Of a stretch of 64,000 nucleotides of DNA, positions 1,176 through 54,620 are shown piece after piece. Each line of letters begins with the position of its first letter. The first letter of the stretch is position 1. Made by a program: the position numbers and the translations under genes. The stretch is taken from positions 182,502-246,501 of the forward strand of contig JACPWD010000022.1 in assembly GCA_016197285.1 (NCBI GenBank), read 5' to 3'. Below the pieces are notes generated by a model. That model did not search any database. It worked only from the letters and a program-made list of their open reading frames with translations, and was not told the origin of the DNA. Source of the DNA: Deltaproteobacteria bacterium. Lineage in GTDB: Bacteria > Desulfobacterota > Binatia > Bin18.

Positions 1176-2479
1176 AGGTTGCTTTCCCTTCGCTCCGAAC
1201 GTAAGAAGCGAAAGAGGCCAAGAAACAAGCCCTCGGCCAGCGCGTCTTGATATTGCGGGTCAGCGAGGAATTTTCCCTCGGCGCGGTGGGTCAGGAAGGC
1301 GGTTTCCACCAACACGCACGGCATATGGGCGCCCACCAACACGTAGAAAGGCCCTTTCTTCACGCCCAGATTGCGCACAGCCGGGTATTTTTCCCGTGCC
1401 CGCGTCACCACAGCAGTTTGCAGATGACGGGCAAGCGCCACGGATTCTTCCGCCTTGCCGTTTTGAATCAGATCGCTCAACACGTAGGATAAGCCGCTTT
1501 TGCCGTCGCTTCTCATATTTCCACGGCGAGATTGCCCACCGTTCTCGAGCGCGGCGAGCCGAATCGTCGCGCGGTCGTTGGTATTATTCAAGTAATAGGT
1601 TTCCACCCCTTGCGTCTCTGCGCTCGTACTGGCGTTGGCATGAATGGAGACGAAGAAGTCGGCCCGCGCCCGATTCGCCCGCGCCACCCGTTTATCCAGT
1701 GGGATGTAGACATCGGACGAACGGGTATACATTACTTTGACCGCGAGTCGCGTCGATAACTTTTTCCCCAACCGCTTGCTAATCGCGAGCACGACGTCTT
1801 TTTCCAACACGCGATCTTCGCTCATGGCTCCAGGATCTTTGCCACCGTGGCCCGGGTCGAGCATGACGATAATCGGGGCTCTCCGGCGCGCGGACTGCAA
1901 TACAGCAGCGGTTTTTCCGCCTCGAGAGCTTTCCTGCTGCGTAGCCAGAGCCTGCCGTGTTCGTATCGGTGCGGGCGACGAGTCCACGACTGGAACTGGA
2001 GGCGCTGGTCGCTTGATTTTCCCTCGGACGTCAAGCACGAGTCGATACGGACCATATAGTTCGAAGGTATTGTATCCCTTGACATTCTCGACCTCGAGGA
2101 TGGCCTGCACGCTGGACGCCGACGATTGTCTCGTCTGGACATGTTTGAGAAACCCATCGTGAACAGCTAACGCGCGCGGCGCTCCCAGACCGGCTTTTGC
2201 CGGAGAGAAATCGACCACTAGACGCGACGGGGAGCCTTTTCGCGTCGCCGGCTCCGTGGAAATTTTGTGGCGGACTTCTTCCGAGAACGTCAGCGTGACG
2301 CGGGTATACTCCTCCGCCGAAACATACTCGACGCTTTGGAGGATCGAAGGAGGAGCAATGTCTTCGGCGCGAGGGAAGGCGCGCGTAGGAAAGACCAGCG
2401 TGCCGAGGGTCGCAAGGAAAAGGGACAACCGAAAACCGAGGGAACTGAAAGAAGAGAGCCGTTTTCGCAAAGCATCCAT
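1172..2479 (-). CDS. N-acetylmuramoyl-L-alanine amidase (AmiC-like, with signal peptide and AMIN-like N-terminal region)
   Basis: 435-aa ORF. N-terminal hydrophobic signal. C-terminal amidase_3-like segment (MLDPGHGG...VSIHANA...ETYYL). Confidence 0.75.
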   Translation of the reverse strand: MDALRKRLSSFSSLGFRLSLFLATLGTLVFPTRAFPRAEDIAPPSILQSVEYVSAEEYTRVTLTFSEEVRHKISTEPATRKGSPSRLVVDFSPAKAGLGAPRALAVHDGFLKHVQTRQSSASSVQAILEVENVKGYNTFELYGPYRLVLDVRGKIKRPAPPVPVVDSSPAPIRTRQALATQQESSRGGKTAAVLQSARRRAPIIVMLDPGHGGKDPGAMSEDRVLEKDVVLAISKRLGKKLSTRLAVKVMYTRSSDVYIPLDKRVARANRARADFFVSIHANASTSAETQGVETYYLNNTNDRATIRLAALENGGQSRRGNMRSDGKSGLSYVLSDLIQNGKAEESVALARHLQTAVVTRAREKYPAVRNLGVKKGPFYVLVGAHMPCVLVETAFLTHRAEGKFLADPQYQDALAEGLFLGLFRFLRSERRESNL

Positions 2480-2587
2480 CTCTCCACTCCTGATAATTCA
2501 AGCCTCACATCGCAGGCGCGCAAAGGCCGCGCTCCCGCTCCTCATCACCCCACCTCTATCAGGTGTCGATTCCCAATACCGCCTCTA

Positions 2588-3859
2588 CTAGGTACCAAAT
2601 TCCCACGAGGCGAGATATTGCTTCTGCTCAGACGTTAGGCGATCGCACTTAATCCCCATACTTGCCAACTTGAGGGTCGCCACTTGCTCTTCGATTTCCT
2701 TCGGGACCAAGTGCACGCAATGTTCGAGTTTTCCGCCGCTTTCCGCCGCCCAGCGCGCAGCCAACGCTTGGGTAGCGAAGCTCATGTCCATCACCGACGC
2801 CGGGTGACCTTCGGCAGCAGCCAAGTTCACCAGGCGCCCTTCTGCGAGAAGGTACACGCGTCGCCCATTCGGCAAAAGATACCCATCTACATTCGGGCGG
2901 CTGTCCTTCTCTACCTGCTTGGCAAGCCCAGTCAGGGCCTTCACATCGATCTCGACATCGAAGTGACCGGAATTGCAGAGAATCGCACCGTCTTTCATCT
3001 GCAGAAAATGCTCTTTGCGGATGACGCTGGTATCGCCCGTCAGTGTAATAAAAATGTCTCCCTCGCGCACGGCGTCGCGCATCGGCATCACGCGGAATCC
3101 GTCCATCGCCGCTTCCAGGGCACGAATCGGGTTGATCTCCGTGACAATGACCTGAGCGCCCATGCCGCGCGCACGCATCGCCACACCCTTCCCGCACCAG
3201 CCGTAGCCGGCAACGACCACCGCCGCGCCGGCCAAGAGAATACTCGTGGCCCGTAAGATCCCATCGATGGTTGACTGCCCGGTGCCGTAGCGATTATCGA
3301 ACAAATACTTCGTGTCCGCGTCATTCACCGCCACTACCGGCAGCTTCAGCACGCCGTTTTTCTCCATCGACCGGAGACGGATGACCCCGGTCGTGGTCTC
3401 TTCCATGCTGGCACAGATCCGCTCCGCTTGTTTCGTGTAGGCAGCATCGGTGTGCAAAAGAGAGACGAGATCGGCACCATCGTCTAACGTCACGACCGGC
3501 TTCTGGTCCAAGACCTGGCGCAGGTGCCGATAGTAAATTTTCTGATCTTCCCCACGGATCGCGAAGGTAGGAATCCCTTCTTTGACCAGAGCGGCAGCCG
3601 TGTCGTCCTGGGTCGAGAGAGGATTCGAGGCGCACAACATCACCTCGGCACCACCCGCCCTAAAGGTGCGCATCAGGTTCGCGGTTTCCGCTGTGACATG
3701 CAGACACGCCGAAAGTTTCATGCCTTTGAGCGGCTGCGTACGCGCAAAAATTTCTTGTACCCGGCGCAGCACCGGCATGTGTTGCTCCGCCCAATCGACC
3801 CGCTTTTTACCGACCGCTGCAAGTTTTAAGTCTTTGACATCGCCACGTTGAGATCCCAT
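2588..3859 (-). CDS. ahcY: S-adenosyl-L-homocysteine hydrolase (adenosylhomocysteinase)
   Basis: Strong AhcY-like sequence (DYKVKD-like start; NAD-binding GYGWCGKG equivalent 'AGYGWCGKGVA'). The track ORF starts at 3937 but would overlap metK. Internal ATG at 3859 has a GAGGA RBS and matches homolog N-termini. Confidence 0.85.
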   Translation of the reverse strand: MGSQRGDVKDLKLAAVGKKRVDWAEQHMPVLRRVQEIFARTQPLKGMKLSACLHVTAETANLMRTFRAGGAEVMLCASNPLSTQDDTAAALVKEGIPTFAIRGEDQKIYYRHLRQVLDQKPVVTLDDGADLVSLLHTDAAYTKQAERICASMEETTTGVIRLRSMEKNGVLKLPVVAVNDADTKYLFDNRYGTGQSTIDGILRATSILLAGAAVVVAGYGWCGKGVAMRARGMGAQVIVTEINPIRALEAAMDGFRVMPMRDAVREGDIFITLTGDTSVIRKEHFLQMKDGAILCNSGHFDVEIDVKALTGLAKQVEKDSRPNVDGYLLPNGRRVYLLAEGRLVNLAAAEGHPASVMDMSFATQALAARWAAESGGKLEHCVHLVPKEIEEQVATLKLASMGIKCDRLTSEQKQYLASWEFGT

Positions 3860-3882
3860 ACGTTCCTCATTCCCTCCTACAC

Positions 3883-5061
3883 TCAGGCCAAGCTCGCCGA
3901 TCGTTTCAGCGTATCGACGCGGTCGGTTCGCTCCCAAGTAAAAAACCCGCCGCGCGCCGGGCGGCCAAAGTGACCATACGAAGCGGTCGCCCGGTAAATA
4001 GGATTTTTCAGTCCTAAGGCTTTAATGATCTCGGCGGGCCGCAAGTCGAAATTCTCGCGCACGATATCCGCCAACTTTTCATCCGGCAGCACCCCGGTGC
4101 CGAAGGTATCGACCAGCACCGACACCGGCTGTGCCATGCCGATCGCATAGGCAACTTGGACTTCACAGCTCCGCGCGAGTTCAGCCGCCACTAAGTTCTT
4201 CGCGATGTAACGCGCCATATACGCAGCAGAACGGTCGACTTTCGAGGGGTCTTTCCCCGAGAACGCCCCCCCGCCGTGACGGCCATACCCACCATAGGTA
4301 TCGACGATGATCTTGCGCCCGGTCAGACCGCAATCCGCGAACGGCCCGCCATGCACGAAACGCCCGGTGGGGTTCACTAAAAAGACCGTCTTGCTGTCGA
4401 GGAATTCCGGCGGCACCACACGTTTAATAATGTCCTCGATCACTGCTTCCTTGATCGTGCCATGCTGCGCGTCGGGGTTGTGCTGCGTCGAGATCAAAAC
4501 CGTATCGGCGCGCGCCGGCCTCCCGTCACGATAATGCACCGTGACCTGCGATTTACTGTCGGGGCGCAGGAACGGCAGTTGCCCGCTCTTGCGCGCCTGC
4601 GTCAACGCTTCCATCAAACGATGGGCGGTATAAATAGGAAAAGGCATGAACTCTTTGGTTTCGTCACACGCGAAACCGAACATCATGCCCTGGTCGCCCG
4701 CGCCTTGCTCTGTATGCAGCCCTTCCCCCTCGGTTACGCCTTGGGAGATGTCGGGCGATTGTAATCCGATCGCGGTCAACACGGCGCAGGTCCCGGCGTC
4801 GAAGCCAAGCTCGGAGCTAGTGTAGCCGATGTCCCGCACCACTTCTCGCGCCAAGTCGGCATAATCGAGCTGCGCGCGTGTGGTAATTTCGCCGGCGATC
4901 ACTACCATCCCAGTTTTCACCAAAGTCTCACAGGCAACGCGGCTGTTTATATCTTGCTGCAGCGCCGCATCCAGCACGGCATCCGAAATCTGATCGCACA
5001 TTTTATCCGGATGCCCTTCGGACACCGATTCCGAAGTAAACAAAAAGTCTTTTGCCGCCAT
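3883..5061 (-). CDS. metK: S-adenosylmethionine synthetase
   Basis: 392 aa; [32 protein letters not shown]... is the canonical MetK N-terminus. Confidence 0.95.
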
Positions 5062-6877: not shown

Positions 6878-8362
6878 TTATCCGCGCGGGAACGCCAGCC
6901 CGCTCGATGAGGACACGTGCTTCCGCTTCGCTGAAGAAAGAATGTTCATGTTTTCCCTATACTTTGCCACGGTACGGCGCGCAATGGTCACATCTCCGCG
7001 AGACAGGGTCTTGGCGATTTCCTCGTCGCTCAGCGGGTGGGCAGAGTCTTCGCTCTCGATCATCTCGCGGATGCGCTCTTTGACGCTCTCCGCCGACACA
7101 TCCGGTCCGTGCCGTCCTTTCAAACCGGTGGTGAAGAATTTTTTCAGGGGGTAAATACCGCGCGGCGTCGCAATATATTTGCCGGCAATCGCCCGACTCA
7201 CCGTGGACTCATGGACGCCAACCTCTTCGGCCACGTCGCGTAAGACGAGCGGGCGCATGTGAGACACGCCATAGGTCAGAAAATCTTGCTGAAACTTCAC
7301 CAGACTCTGCGCGACGAGCAAGAGCGTCCGCTGACGTTGATGAATACTCTTGATGAGCCACGCGGCGGAGCGCAATTTTTCCTGGACGTACTCTTTGGCC
7401 TCGCCTTCTTCGGCCAACAGGCGACGATAGGAAGCGCTCACCTTCAACCGCGGCAGTCCTTCTTCATTAAGCGTGACGACCCAGTCCTCGCCCACCTTTT
7501 GGACATACACATCCTCGGTCACATAGCGGACGTCGCCTTCGCCAAAATCGCGCCCAGGCTTCGGCTCGAGCGAAGAGATCAATTTGACGGCGTGGGTCAC
7601 TTCTTCGATAGTGACCCCTAAATCTTTGGCAAGGCGGTCGAACCGGCGGATTTCCAACGCCGGCAAATGGTCCCGAATAATGCGTCCGGCGACGGCAAGA
7701 ATCGGGTCGTTCAGGGTAGGATTCTCTAACCCTTGATGACGGAGTTGCAACAGCAGGCACTCCCGCAAGTCGCGCGCACCCACCCCGGACGGATCGCACT
7801 CTTGGATAATCCCCAATACGCGCAAGACCTCTTCGTCGCTCGCGCCGACATTCGCGGCAATCTCTTCGATCGGAGCTTGTAGATAGCCATCGACATCGAG
7901 ATTGCCGATAACCACGGCGGCAATCCGCACCTCTTCTTCCGTCAGAGCGCGGAACCGGAGTTGCCACGCGAGATGTTCCGTCAGGGATTCTGTCCGATTC
8001 GGTTGATTTTCGATGAGATTTTGCCGGTCTTCGTCGGCATCGTCGCTTCCCCACGCCGGGAGCGACGGGGCTCCATCGTTATATGTCTCGAGATAGGAGC
8101 GCCAATCGATGTCTTCAGAAGTGGCAACCTTCTCCGCGGCTTCAGGTGGAGGCGGCTCCTCGCTCATCACCCCGGCCTCGGCAAGAGAGACTTCTTCTTC
8201 TCCCTGTTCGACCGTGAGCACTGGATTCTCCGCCAGCTCTTCGTTGATTAGGGTATCGAGTTCGCCGCGCGGGAGTTGGAGAATCTTGATAGCCTGACGC
8301 AGTTGGGGCGTCATCACTAATCTCTGCGTCAATTTTTGCTGGAGCCTAATATCCAAAGCCAT
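6878..8362 (-). CDS. rpoN: RNA polymerase sigma-54 factor
   Basis: 494 aa; N-terminal Gln/Leu-rich activator-interacting region (LTQRLVMTPQLRQAIKILQLP); C-terminal RpoN box (ARRTVAKYRE). Confidence 0.95.
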   Translation of the reverse strand: MALDIRLQQKLTQRLVMTPQLRQAIKILQLPRGELDTLINEELAENPVLTVEQGEEEVSLAEAGVMSEEPPPPEAAEKVATSEDIDWRSYLETYNDGAPSLPAWGSDDADEDRQNLIENQPNRTESLTEHLAWQLRFRALTEEEVRIAAVVIGNLDVDGYLQAPIEEIAANVGASDEEVLRVLGIIQECDPSGVGARDLRECLLLQLRHQGLENPTLNDPILAVAGRIIRDHLPALEIRRFDRLAKDLGVTIEEVTHAVKLISSLEPKPGRDFGEGDVRYVTEDVYVQKVGEDWVVTLNEEGLPRLKVSASYRRLLAEEGEAKEYVQEKLRSAAWLIKSIHQRQRTLLLVAQSLVKFQQDFLTYGVSHMRPLVLRDVAEEVGVHESTVSRAIAGKYIATPRGIYPLKKFFTTGLKGRHGPDVSAESVKERIREMIESEDSAHPLSDEEIAKTLSRGDVTIARRTVAKYRENMNILSSAKRKHVSSSSGLAFPRG

Positions 8363-13730: not shown

Positions 13731-14015
13731 GCTCGAAAAAATCCTTTACTGTTGTGAATGGGGATTCGGGCTACGGAACTCGACTATAGGGCAGAAGCCT
13801 GGCAAGGTCAAATTCGCGCAGAAAGCCGCGAAAAATCAGGGGGATAAAACAGGCTCTGATCAGGTGGCACCTTTGTGGGTCCTTGCCTCAACCGTGCTCG
13901 ACAGAAATTTTGACCGTGCCGAGTTTGGGTGGAGACGCTAAATGAAGAAGATGTTGCCGTTGGGGTGAAAAGAGAGCGGCAGGTATACTTCGCGAGTCAT
14001 ACCCTGCGCTTTTTC

Positions 14016-14105
14016 TGTCATTCTGAACGAAGCAGAGCGCAGTGAAGAATCTTTTTGCTGAGCCACGAGTGGAGCGAGATTCCTCGCTCCGTTCGGAATG
14101 ACAAC
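14016..14105. repeat. MITE/REP-like imperfect palindromic repeat, family 1 copy A
   Basis: TGTCATTCTGAACG...GAAGAATC ... GAGATTCCTCG...CGGAATGACA. It is one of six dispersed copies and sits in the kdsB upstream region at the island boundary. Confidence 0.7.
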
Positions 14106-14136
14106 ATCGGGCGATAATGGTTATGCGGATAGGCCC

Positions 14137-14532
14137 TTAGTACCGCCTAGAGATCCGTTCGCCTCCATGTTGTTTCATCTCGAACTGGTCTTCAAATAGG
14201 TGGGTAACGCCCTTCCAAGCTTGGTGTCTCTCTTCCCTTTTAAGGAATTTTTTCAAAGCCCGTAACCTTGTTGCAGGCTTGACTCCAAACTTAATCATGC
14301 CTTGGTGAGTACAAAACGGAATATAGTTCTCAGTAAATCTCTTATCGCTTGTTATCAAGATTGCCCCAGCGTCAGTAGACTTCTGAATCACGGTTGGGTC
14401 TTCAGCGTCCTGCCTTAGCCCAGCATCACGAAAGGAAACCACTTTGATCTTTCTCAGAGTGGAAAGATATTCTGAGATCTCGGCTGATAGGCAAGCATCC
14501 ACCAAGAAAGTCAGTTTCCTTTTGGAACTCAT
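14137..14532 (-). CDS. DUF5615-family (PIN-like, Mut7-C related) putative toxin
   Basis: 131 aa; LTFLVDACLS...ISEYL N-terminus resembles DUF5615 proteins that pair with DUF433; low-GC region; 3 nt from the DUF433 ORF. Confidence 0.5.
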   Translation of the reverse strand: MSSKRKLTFLVDACLSAEISEYLSTLRKIKVVSFRDAGLRQDAEDPTVIQKSTDAGAILITSDKRFTENYIPFCTHQGMIKFGVKPATRLRALKKFLKREERHQAWKGVTHLFEDQFEMKQHGGERISRRY

Positions 14533-14535
14533 GCC

Positions 14536-14811
14536 TTATCTTTCCATGACATACCCGGCAAACTGAAGCGCCGCGTGTAATCCTTCTTGGCCAATCGCTG
14601 GAAAGGATTTCAGTATCTTCTTATGCGAGTACCCTGCTTCGACTAACTCAAGAATGGCATAGACAGGAACTCTTGTCTCGGCGACGCAGGGTGCTCCTCC
14701 ATAGATTTTCCTGTTCATAACGATTTTATTATCGACCTTCTCTGCTGCTTGACGAAAAGATTCCTCTATGGAGTCACGAAAATGATCCGCAGAGGACATG
14801 TCAGCATCCAT
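14536..14811 (-). CDS. DUF433-domain protein (putative antitoxin partner). The ORF may extend to 14967.
   Basis: C-terminal IYGGAPCVAETRVPVYAILELVEAGYSHKKILKSFP matches the DUF433 core. Domain-sized protein starts at ATG 14811. Track ORF (143 aa) starts at 14967. Confidence 0.55.
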   Translation of the reverse strand: MDADMSSADHFRDSIEESFRQAAEKVDNKIVMNRKIYGGAPCVAETRVPVYAILELVEAGYSHKKILKSFPAIGQEGLHAALQFAGYVMER

Positions 14812-14963
14812 GCTAGATGCAGGCCATTCTAAGTTAGTGCGCAACGAGCACAAGGACGTTAAGTCTCTGATGATGGAGAATTTCTCCCCGGAGCGCCTAA
14901 CGGGTCGCCTTGCTGATAAGAAGAATCTCTCTTGTTCTGTACTTTTTCGCTTCTGTGCCGCAA

Positions 14964-15671
14964 TCATTTTCTTCTCCTTATCGGTCTTACTGTAGAAAGT
15001 GCAACTTCACTAAGGACAACGACATCATCCTCAACAGTCATCAGTTTCTGCGCGGTAGTCTTTGCTTGTCTATTTAGCCGAACAAAAATTGACTTTCTCA
15101 ATACCCGCTGTTCGGCAAAGCTTACGCCTACTTTATTTTCTTGAAGATTGAGGAAGGTTCCCTCTGCCTGAGCGCCTTCAAAAATTTCGTTCTCTGTGGT
15201 GTTCAATGTCCCAGATAAAAGCAAGGGGAGAGAGAACGCCGAACGATAAGAGTTCCTTGGAAATGCGAAAAATGCCATCTCTTTTAGCTCAATGCTTGCG
15301 TCTGGAGAGATGAATTTATGCAGCCATTGAAATATATCTTCCGCAAATGGCGGCTGTTCCCTGTCCGATTTGATCGCCGTCGTTGGCTCAAGGGCAACAT
15401 GGAAATGCAGCTTGGCCGCTTTGGTTAATTTTTCACGATCCCAGTGAATCCCGACACGTGCTCGATAATCGACTTTTTCACTGGACCGACCACAGGATAC
15501 GGCAAGCGGTTGATTTTTCTTGAACGCTTTTACCAGGTCTTCAAAAGGGAGAACTTCGAGAAATAGATCCTGTAGAAAGTCTTTCTTAGCGATCACTATG
15601 TTCGCTTCAAAGCCTCCACAGTGATGGGACTTGAGTTTTAATGCCTCGCGTTCTTTCCGGGGTGTAGTCAT
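14964..15671 (-). CDS. Hypothetical protein, 235 aa, no recognisable domain; in low-GC island
   Basis: Clean ORF with balanced amino-acid composition, unlike GC-rich antisense ORFs. AT-richer than flanks. Adjacent to the DUF433/DUF5615 pair. Confidence 0.5.
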   Translation of the reverse strand: MTTPRKEREALKLKSHHCGGFEANIVIAKKDFLQDLFLEVLPFEDLVKAFKKNQPLAVSCGRSSEKVDYRARVGIHWDREKLTKAAKLHFHVALEPTTAIKSDREQPPFAEDIFQWLHKFISPDASIELKEMAFFAFPRNSYRSAFSLPLLLSGTLNTTENEIFEGAQAEGTFLNLQENKVGVSFAEQRVLRKSIFVRLNRQAKTTAQKLMTVEDDVVVLSEVALSTVRPIRRRK

Positions 15672-15849
15672 GAAAATTCATCCAGGGAACTAATATGGCA
15701 CGAACGACGCCAACTAAACAACCTTCATCACCGCTCGAAATCAAAATATAAAGGCAGGGTTAGCGGTGTTTCCCCTCGCCGTTGTCGCTTCTCTTCTATA
15801 AGGATTTAGGAGACCTATCGTTCCCCAATTCGGCGGCTTCGTCCATGGC

Positions 15850-16269
15850 TCACACCTCCACCGGGGTCGGCTCGCCCTCCCCCCACACGCGGGCGAGGGT
15901 GGCCTGTATCTTCTTCTCGAAGCGGGCGATCAGTTCACGGTTGGCGGCGACCAACGCTTGCTCCGCTTCAATCTCCTCGACGATTTCCTCGATGAGGCGC
16001 TTGGGGTTCGGCACGGTCTTTTGGTAGCCAGTGATGGAGGTAGGCGTCGGAAACGCCGTGATGACGTAAGGGTTGCCGCGTTCGAGATCCCAGAAGTAAT
16101 GCAGGTTGCCGTTGGAGAGGATGACGAAGCGGCAGTTCTGGGACTTGGCGTATCTACGCACCTGCTCCTTGCCGACGAGCGGGCTTCTGTCTTCGGCTTT
16201 GGCTTCGAGGACGATGAACGGGAAGCCTTTTTCATTGCGGCTTCCTTCTCGGGCATTCCGATTCCTGTC
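15850..16269 (-). pseudogene. Remnant of a type I restriction enzyme R-subunit N-terminal (HsdR_N-like) domain protein
   Basis: Stop-to-stop frame encodes ...GFPFIVLEAKAEDRSPLVGKEQVRRYAKSQNCRFVILSNGNLHYFWDLERGNPYVI, the HsdR_N restriction-enzyme core motif. No start codon precedes the domain. The only start is a GTG in mid-domain. Confidence 0.5.
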
Positions 16270-16303
16270 TCAGCGGCGTTGATCAAAAGGAGAGAGCTAC
16301 TGC

Positions 16304-18013: not shown

Positions 18014-18118
18014 AGGGATTGTCATTCCGAGCCGGAACGCAGTGCAGGCGAGGAATCTCGTGTCGATACTGCCAGCGTGAGATTTCTCGTCGCTCCGCTC
18101 CTCGAAATGACATCCCTC
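18014..18118. repeat. MITE/REP-like repeat family 1 copy B
   Basis: GTCATTCCGAGCCGGAACGCAGTGCAGGCGAGGAATCTCG ... GAGATTTCTCGTCGC...CGAAATGACA; sits in the alpha-E/Anbu intergenic gap; generates spurious ORF 17745..18113. Confidence 0.7.
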
Positions 18119-28842: not shown

Positions 28843-28872
28843 GCGCCTATCCGGATAACCACTATCGCCCGA

Positions 28873-28970
28873 TTGTCATTCTGAGCGCAGCGAAGAATCT
28901 TGCTTTCACCGCCGAAGAAAGATGTTTCGCGGAGTTTATCCTGAGCGTAGTCGAAGGGCTCAACATGACA
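28873..28970. repeat. MITE/REP-like repeat family 1 copy C, flanked by TATCCGGATA palindromic direct repeats
   Basis: TGTCATTCTGAGCGCAGCGAAGAATC ... GCGGAGTTTATCCTGAGCGTAGTCGAAGGG; CCTATCCGGATAAC at ~28848 and GTTATCCGGATAGG at ~28981. Confidence 0.7.
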
Positions 28971-54533: not shown

Positions 54534-54620
54534 TTGTCACCCTGAACCCTTCGACTTCGCTCAGGATAAACTCCGTGAAGGGTCTCGCCGTGAGATTCTT
54601 CGCTGCGCTCAGAATGACAG
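54534..54620. repeat. MITE/REP-like repeat family 1 copy D (inverse orientation of copy C)
   Basis: CCCTTCGACTTCGCTCAGGATAAACTCCG ... GAGATTCTTCGCTGCGCTCAGAATGACA is the reverse complement arrangement of copy C. Confidence 0.7.

Follow-up and report, generated by a model that had tools for sequence, protein, structure and literature searches.

The 64,000-nucleotide (nt) stretch of DNA analyzed here, hereafter the window (contig JACPWD010000022.1 of the Deltaproteobacteria bacterium assembly GCA_016197285.1, positions 182,502 to 246,501; GTDB lineage Desulfobacterota, Binatia, Bin18), carries on its minus strand a low-GC cassette of three genes. These encode a 235-residue protein without a recognizable domain (the orphan), a DUF433 protein and a DUF5615 PIN-like protein. 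The reading that we favor, and that we hold to be probable, is that the cassette is a small, horizontally mobile and self-contained three-part variant of the DUF433-PIN-like (COG2442/COG4634-type) type II toxin-antitoxin (TA) systems. A first-pass annotation of this DNA had placed the orphan, as a gene of its own, in a defense island together with a TA-like pair and a restriction remnant. The open reading frames (ORFs) and domains that it named were all found, on the minus strand, and the orphan proved instead to be the leading gene of a three-gene operon that is strictly conserved. The features on which the argument turns are as follows.

14093..15847, minus strand: mobile cassette (leader, three genes and trailer), 1,755 bp, delimited by the span of the match to a second copy (locus L007) and by GC content.
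14964..15671, minus strand: orphan gene, first cistron, 235 aa; no Pfam domain, defined by its own family alignment.
14536..14967, minus strand: DUF433 (COG2442) antitoxin-like protein, 143 aa; Pfam PF04255, 59.2 bits, E 3.4e-16.
14137..14532, minus strand: DUF5615 PIN-like protein (Mut7-C group), putative nuclease toxin, 131 aa; PF18480.

The three genes were found together wherever they could be followed. An orphan homolog, then DUF433, then DUF5615, all on the same strand, was observed in all 15 distinct loci with enough contig, and the orphans of these triads ranged in identity to that of the window from 98% down to 23-36%. The loci were gathered by exact-protein look-ups, from GTDB genomes and Joint Genome Institute (JGI) metagenomes, and by a local hidden Markov model (HMM) scan, and duplicates were removed; the triad genomes in GTDB were two Binatia and one Acidobacteriota metagenome-assembled genomes, with their domains confirmed. 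The search for the same arrangement in other genomes, which the first-pass annotation had proposed, was thereby answered in the positive. Only L016 and L022 lacked the full triad, and both were cut by contig ends. The reverse search, started from the toxin, gave only 6 matches (55-97% identity), and the one whose context was examined (P0029) had a DUF433 gene and a gene for a 239-aa Pfam-less protein upstream. The family is very rare, and so far it is confined to uncultured Binatia, Acidobacteriota and unbinned metagenomic contigs.

The genes are also tightly coupled. The stop codon of the orphan overlaps the start codon of DUF433 by 4 nt (ATGA) in 10 of the 15 loci, the window included, and the spacer between DUF433 and DUF5615 is 3-6 nt in 13 of the 15 (3 nt in the window). 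The pairwise identities of the three proteins correlate with each other (r = 0.73-0.89 over 105 pairs). When the window was compared with L007, the ratio of non-synonymous to synonymous polymorphism (pN/pS) was 0.15 for the orphan (10 synonymous and 5 non-synonymous changes) and 0.11 for DUF5615. Because of this linkage, the 4-nt overlap, the short spacer, the co-variation and the pN/pS values, the orphan gene is the opening cistron of an operon whose three genes are passed on and selected together. As in type II TA systems, the antitoxin-like gene lies directly upstream of the toxin-like gene, co-oriented and tightly spaced; the two-gene architecture of such systems is departed from, and the third gene is invariably present.

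That the orphan has no recognizable domain, as had been noted before, was borne out in all profile libraries tried. Nothing was found in Pfam, PADLOC, PHROGs or NCBIfam, nor when Pfam was run separately on each of the 20 members of the family, and a sequence-profile comparison with the PDB gave chance matches only (best E 0.029). A word-indexed search of 5.8 billion proteins returned five full-length relatives (46-98% identity), and HMMER, run exhaustively over 1.84 billion cluster representatives, returned only 20 relatives at E<=1e-3, with 7 at E<=1e-30; none was found in phage, plasmid or IMG/VR collections. Two long proteins, P0021 (923 aa) and P0022 (2069 aa), aligned with the orphan in 6-8 separate, short pieces (E about 1e-5), and these matches are probably repeat or low-complexity artifacts. 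The possibility raised in the first-pass annotation that the ORF would lack conservation was disposed of by full-length homologs down to about 23% identity and by the pN/pS value. The orphan gene is genuine and conserved, and purifying selection acts on it.

In the 20-sequence alignment of the orphan family, F37, D68, P108, A110, E111, W116 and P149 are invariant, and a PPFAE(D/E)xxxW motif can be recognized. The orphan is probably not an enzyme, since no Lys, Arg or His is invariant in this alignment, Tyr69 and Ser144 are conserved to only about 90%, and the invariant residues are mostly aromatic or proline. The AlphaFold model of the protein reached a predicted local distance difference test (pLDDT) value of 92.6 and a predicted template modeling (pTM) score of 0.87, with about nine antiparallel strands and helices. 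A Foldseek comparison of this model with the PDB gave no convincing match (best E 0.06), and a viral structure library contributed a single unnamed protein with a template modeling (TM) score of 0.43. As modeled, the fold is confident yet unmatched, and the orphan would represent a protein family without known relatives.

The two genes that follow are of a known kind. The DUF433 protein matches the full PF04255 profile (1-56) with its highly conserved C-terminal part (residues 82-137 of 143), and the N-terminal extension of ~75 aa is poorly conserved, variable and gap-rich; a profile of the family matched the PDB entry 2GA1 at 3.7e-6. Across the triads the DUF433 proteins are 123-158 aa long, of which about 50-90 aa form the variable N-terminal extension, and the DUF5615 proteins 131-142 aa. 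The DUF5615 protein of the window scored 29.6 bits with PF18480, above the gathering cut-off of 23.8, and 25.1 bits with PF18478 (PIN_10), just below the cut-off of 26.2. Residues D12, D45 and D63 are invariant both in the DUF5615 family alignment and in a 14-row fused alignment of the triads, and a weak match to the PIN domain 1O4W (E 0.67) aligns D45 and the 'litsDk' D63. They agree with the acidic active-site pattern of the Mut7-C group, in which one Asp follows strand 1 and another, of the (S/T)xD type, follows a later strand. The DUF5615 proteins are uniformly basic, with isoelectric points of 9.2-11.1 across the family.

Pairs of this kind have been predicted to be TA modules, in a survey that noted no conserved neighbor of COG2442 besides PIN (Makarova et al., PMC2701414). 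COG4634 and PIN_10 are Mut7-C group PIN-like putative toxins partnered with DUF433 (PMC5499597). One PIN-COG2442 pair, Synechocystis vapBC10, is a proven TA system: its antitoxin, which ClpXP degrades, both binds its own promoter and activates it (PMC3834315). The assignment of the DUF433/DUF5615 pair to a TA-like class in the first-pass annotation is therefore well placed.

Upstream of the orphan, the cassette carries a leader with one conserved element.

15693..15713, minus strand: conserved leader motif TTGGCGTCGTTCGTGCCATAT, about 20-40 nt upstream of the orphan start.

This motif is kept in the window, L007, L008, L002 and L016, although the coding DNA is only about 67-70% identical, which makes it a candidate operator or promoter element. 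Its 11-nt unit TTCGTGCAATA is present as a tandem duplicate in L007 (about 320-345) and as a single copy in the window (15693-15705). The leader RNA was not unusually structured (z +1.29) and had no Rfam match. Two loci of another sub-clade carry a perfect 13-bp inverted repeat, ATCCCTTTAACTG ... CAGTTAAAGGGAT with a 12-nt spacer, ~60-100 nt upstream of the orphan start (L001, about 7905-7942; L006, about 253-290); the repeat falls within a 1.92-kb mobile unit that these two loci share and has no counterpart in the leader of the window.

In the working that we propose for the cassette, the last gene would provide the toxin, a basic PIN-like Mut7-C nuclease with three invariant aspartates, and the middle gene would provide a DUF433 DNA-binding antitoxin that neutralizes it. 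The antitoxin would probably also bind the conserved leader motif and in that way control the operon. The orphan would be an obligatory third subunit, translationally coupled to the antitoxin, and most likely a non-catalytic binding or regulatory partner that sets the amount of active antitoxin. The availability of antitoxin set by the orphan would then decide the timing of nuclease release.

Three groups of known systems serve for comparison. The first one consists of the PIN-COG2442 VapBC-type pairs (Synechocystis vapBC10, and Mycobacterium tuberculosis VapBC45, Rv2018/Rv2019), in which DUF433 also lies directly upstream of a PIN-like nuclease and is tightly coupled to it, and which are likewise small and mobile. 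Unlike these pairs, the cassette has a preceding third gene of unknown family that overlaps the antitoxin start, and its antitoxin is 123-158 aa long with a variable N-terminal extension, whereas the usual COG2442 antitoxin is 70-80 aa (PMC2701414).

The second group was found on plasmids of Rhizobium and Sinorhizobium, where an N-terminally extended DUF433 is followed by DUF5615, with a 4-nt overlap between the two (L029, Rhizobium tropici pRtrCIAT899b, 1252-4899; L030, Sinorhizobium pSS05631a, 3821-4896). These pairs differ from the cassette in that no orphan precedes them and in that the DUF433 extension is about 50 aa longer; the identity between the two groups is only 27-30% for DUF433 and near zero for the toxin. 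The toxin of the cassette belongs to a very divergent DUF5615 sub-clade, of which only the N-terminal FLxDxCLS aligns with the rhizobial DUF5615. In R. tropici this pair, an adjacent HipA/HTH pair and another long DUF433 gene make up a small toxin-antitoxin cluster.

The toxin-antitoxin-chaperone (TAC) systems form the third group. They share with the cassette the three genes, an antitoxin with a poorly conserved extension and a dedicated third protein, and they offer a working analogy for a third component that gates a toxin (PMC5105189, PMC6377645). The third protein of TAC is SecB-like and is encoded last, whereas the orphan is not SecB-like and is encoded first; the antitoxin extension is C-terminal in TAC (ChAD, chaperone-addiction) and N-terminal in the cassette. 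The cassette is not a member of the TAC family. The pair as such is of a known kind, and what is new is the invariable third gene, the unmatched fold and the mobility without a recombinase. A further step, which we put forward tentatively and rate well below the reading of the cassette as a three-part TA variant, is that the orphan founds a structurally new family and is the dedicated gatekeeper of the PIN-like toxin, either as a non-SecB antitoxin partner or as a phage or stress sensor, so that the cassette would define a new three-part class of TA or abortive-infection systems.

Several points weigh against the favored reading. What the data show is the gene content, the strict linkage of the three genes, their coupling and co-divergence, the mobility, the purifying selection and the confident, unmatched fold; toxicity, neutralization, physical interaction, DNA binding and the role of the orphan are inferred. 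The AlphaFold model of the DUF5615 protein is poor (pLDDT 48.7; its N-terminal half is beta-alpha-beta-alpha-beta, at low confidence), so that the PIN-like fold is predicted from the sequence alone. On the rhizobial plasmids a long DUF433 (217-221 aa) is paired with DUF5615 in the absence of an orphan, and two genes are evidently enough for such a pair to function. The residues D68 and E111 of the orphan, together with the near-invariant C18, Y69 and S144, could make an active or ligand site. In addition, promoter and terminator scans gave nothing above chance. The N-terminal extension of the antitoxin had also been considered as a docking element unique to the orphan, and this proposal was weakened by the two-gene pairs: because rhizobial pairs with an extended DUF433 exist, such an extension need not imply an orphan partner.

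The cassette is a true low-GC island. In 400-nt windows the GC content was 0.453-0.470 across 14000-15799 and 0.54-0.65 on both sides, and the whole cassette has a GC content of 0.458 against 0.585 and 0.584 in its two 4.85-kb flanks. The GC content at third codon positions (GC3) is 0.485 for DUF5615, 0.493 for DUF433 and 0.428 for the orphan, compared with 0.66-0.71 for pyrG, kdsB and the transglutaminase, Anbu and Alpha-E genes. The low-GC block ends at ~15800-15847. The cassette is flanked by kdsB (CTP_transf_3, E 3e-54) on one side, and by the genes for transglutaminase, the proteasome-like Anbu and Alpha-E on the other one. The drop in composition on which the first-pass annotation relied is real, and its suggestion of a foreign origin is strengthened by the copy at L007.

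This copy is 96.6% identical to the window over 14093..15847 only (L007 175-1940), and both of its flanks are unrelated to those of the window; it is the different flanks of a near-identical copy that demonstrate mobility. Likewise, L001 and L006 are 89% identical across 1.92 kb, beyond which they diverge. At nine of nine loci with a measurable flank, the GC content of the cassette is below that of the flanks, by 3-18 points. Judged from these alignments, the cassette is a discrete and recently mobile unit of 1,755 bp. Hallmarks of integration were not found: there is no tRNA in the window and no integrase, transposase or other recombinase domain in the cassette, and only short, chance-level repeats were seen. 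An empty site was sought by exact look-up of KdsB and the transglutaminase, and only the same genome was returned, with the island present (L014). The cassette moves without any recognizable recombinase.

Directly beyond the low-GC block lies the restriction remnant that had been counted as part of the same island.

15850..16239, minus strand: restriction-modification operon scar, 390 bp; the GFPFIVLEAKA...RFVILSNGNLHYFWDLERGNPYVI frame, with HsdR-like and methylase matches.

The frame matches only positions 47-100 of 110 of the HSDR_N_2 profile and positions 60-133 of 768 of the NCBIfam model restrict_EcoAI (EcoAI-type R subunit), and PADLOC gave weak matches to type I models. In-frame stops lie upstream, there is no start codon before the domain and no helicase follows; an intact R subunit has a complete N-terminal nuclease domain and a helicase, and the remnant has neither. 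Residues 2-81 are 67.5% identical to about residues 68-147 of 849-aa DEAD/DEAH (HsdR-like) proteins of Escherichia coli plasmids, where this gene is followed by one for an N-6 DNA methylase. At the other end of the frame, ~24 aa agree with the very C-terminus of such a methylase from a Paracoccus plasmid, where its gene again lies downstream of one for a DEAD/DEAH helicase. From these fragment matches, the remnant is the scar of an R-then-M operon that has lost its 5' end and has suffered a large internal deletion joining the N-terminus of R to the C-terminus of M, and its earlier description as a decayed restriction gene was to the point. Its closest intact relative is an operon of the E. coli IncF plasmid pCys-6 (L027 5800-12240), which encodes a DEAD/DEAH helicase, an N-6 DNA methylase and a TrlF-family AAA-like ATPase and differs from the classical hsdRMS.

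The remnant was rejected as a part of the cassette. Its GC content is 0.60 and its GC3 is 0.81, above that of the surrounding host genes, and no homolog of it was found at any other cassette locus. Since the remnant differs in composition and never accompanies the cassette elsewhere, the island of the first-pass annotation consists of two unrelated things side by side: the low GC content holds for the three genes, and the remnant lies outside the block.

Among the rival explanations, the one that survives best is that the triad serves anti-phage abortive infection, with the orphan as a sensor that binds a phage product and frees the PIN-like nuclease. It overlaps with the three-part TA reading and differs from it mainly in purpose. 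At L001/L011 the cassette follows directly after a complete type I hsdM-hsdS-hsdR-ygjP set and precedes a PIN/PhD pair, and at L002 it adjoins an IS1595 transposase and a 1,174-aa AAA_16/TPR nucleoside triphosphatase; defense or mobile-element neighbors were thus observed in two of six long contexts. In the window the cassette abuts the restriction-modification scar, the low GC content and the mobility are typical of defense genes, restriction islands with DUF433-PIN_10 pairs inside them have been described (PMC5499597), and three-part TA systems that sense phage via a third component are known (10.1101/2024.02.24.581848; PMC11618068).

On the other side stand the remaining contexts. L012 (a TPR protein and a thiolase) and L019 (MutY, TatD, a transglycosylase and an ACT-domain protein) have only housekeeping or otherwise non-defense neighbors, L013 has infB upstream and a weak PIN match downstream, and the window has kdsB, the Anbu operon and a scar that is unrelated to the cassette. 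PADLOC gave no match at E<=1 for any of the three cassette proteins. In favor of the defense island of the first-pass annotation stand the neighbors at L001/L011 and L002, the scar in the window and the published pair in a restriction island; against it stand the other contexts, the PADLOC result and the lack of relatives in phage, plasmid or IMG/VR collections. With as few as six contexts to judge by, its support is weak. An abortive-infection role, as the explanation of the triad, we rate as rather unlikely; a solitary, self-mobile TA-like cassette inserted into intergenic DNA accounts for the data better than a defense island does.

A second alternative is that the orphan is the mobility protein of the cassette (e.g., a nickase or a Rep-like protein), and that DUF433 and DUF5615 are an addiction module that stabilizes a minimal selfish element; we regard this as improbable. 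A third one makes the orphan the true effector or toxin (e.g., a ribosome- or nucleic-acid-binding inhibitor), with DUF433 as regulator and DUF5615 as accessory nuclease. The orphan is the largest and family-defining component, it is mostly basic across the family and most members have a basic C-terminal tail, and its model shows weak structural echoes of TBP-like and helix-grip alpha+beta folds (the TATA-binding protein, the C-terminal domain of phosphoglucomutase, and START/Bet v 1), fold classes that include at least one known toxin, RatA. However, the PIN-like protein keeps its three invariant aspartates and is strongly constrained by purifying selection, which is what an active nuclease toxin should show, and the first gene in type II systems is usually not the toxin, so that this assignment of roles has very little to recommend it. 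Finally, that the ORF arose by chance or is a passenger without functional tie to the TA pair, as the failure of every profile library to recognize a domain might suggest, is effectively refuted by the divergent full-length homologs always in the same arrangement, the pN/pS value, the confident model and the conserved 4-nt overlap with the next gene.

On the trailer side the cassette is adjoined by a host repeat, reported previously as a copy of a miniature inverted-repeat transposable element (MITE).

14016..14103, strand not assigned: MITE-like palindromic element with 18-nt terminal inverted repeats (14016-14033 and 14086-14103).

The element abuts the cassette trailer in the window and is genuine: its inverted repeats are TGTCATTCTGAACGAAGC and GCTCCGTTCGGAATGACA, and the window holds 4 occurrences of the arm motif, where chance would give 0.33. 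Further copies of the arm lie at 28875-28891 and 54602-54618, and a further element at 18020-18112. The members of the family end in TGTCATTC(C/T)GA(A/G)CG... and are scattered intergenically, one copy separating the Anbu gene from that for Alpha-E. Next to the cassette, 62 nt (14073-14134) match 28845-28904, inverted, at 85% identity. At L007 the family is represented by another, longer element (1930-2068), which starts at the same nucleotide after the cassette trailer. As a part of the cassette the MITE was rejected: it is a host repeat family, carried only by the window/L014 and L007 and not present at the other cassette loci. Directly after the Acidobacteriota cassette (L013 11210-11275), short tandem repeats of the GTAACCCCG type were observed.

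The practical reach of these results is limited, the family being very rare and so far found only in uncultured, soil-type lineages (Binatia and Acidobacteriota). Nevertheless, the cassette is a compact three-gene construct of 1.75 kb that can be synthesized and is directly testable. Few types of TA systems are as abundant and yet as little studied as the DUF433-PIN-like pairs, and, if the reading of the cassette as a three-part variant of them is true, the SecB-type TAC systems would no longer be the only kind of three-part TA logic, and the cassette would add a second one.

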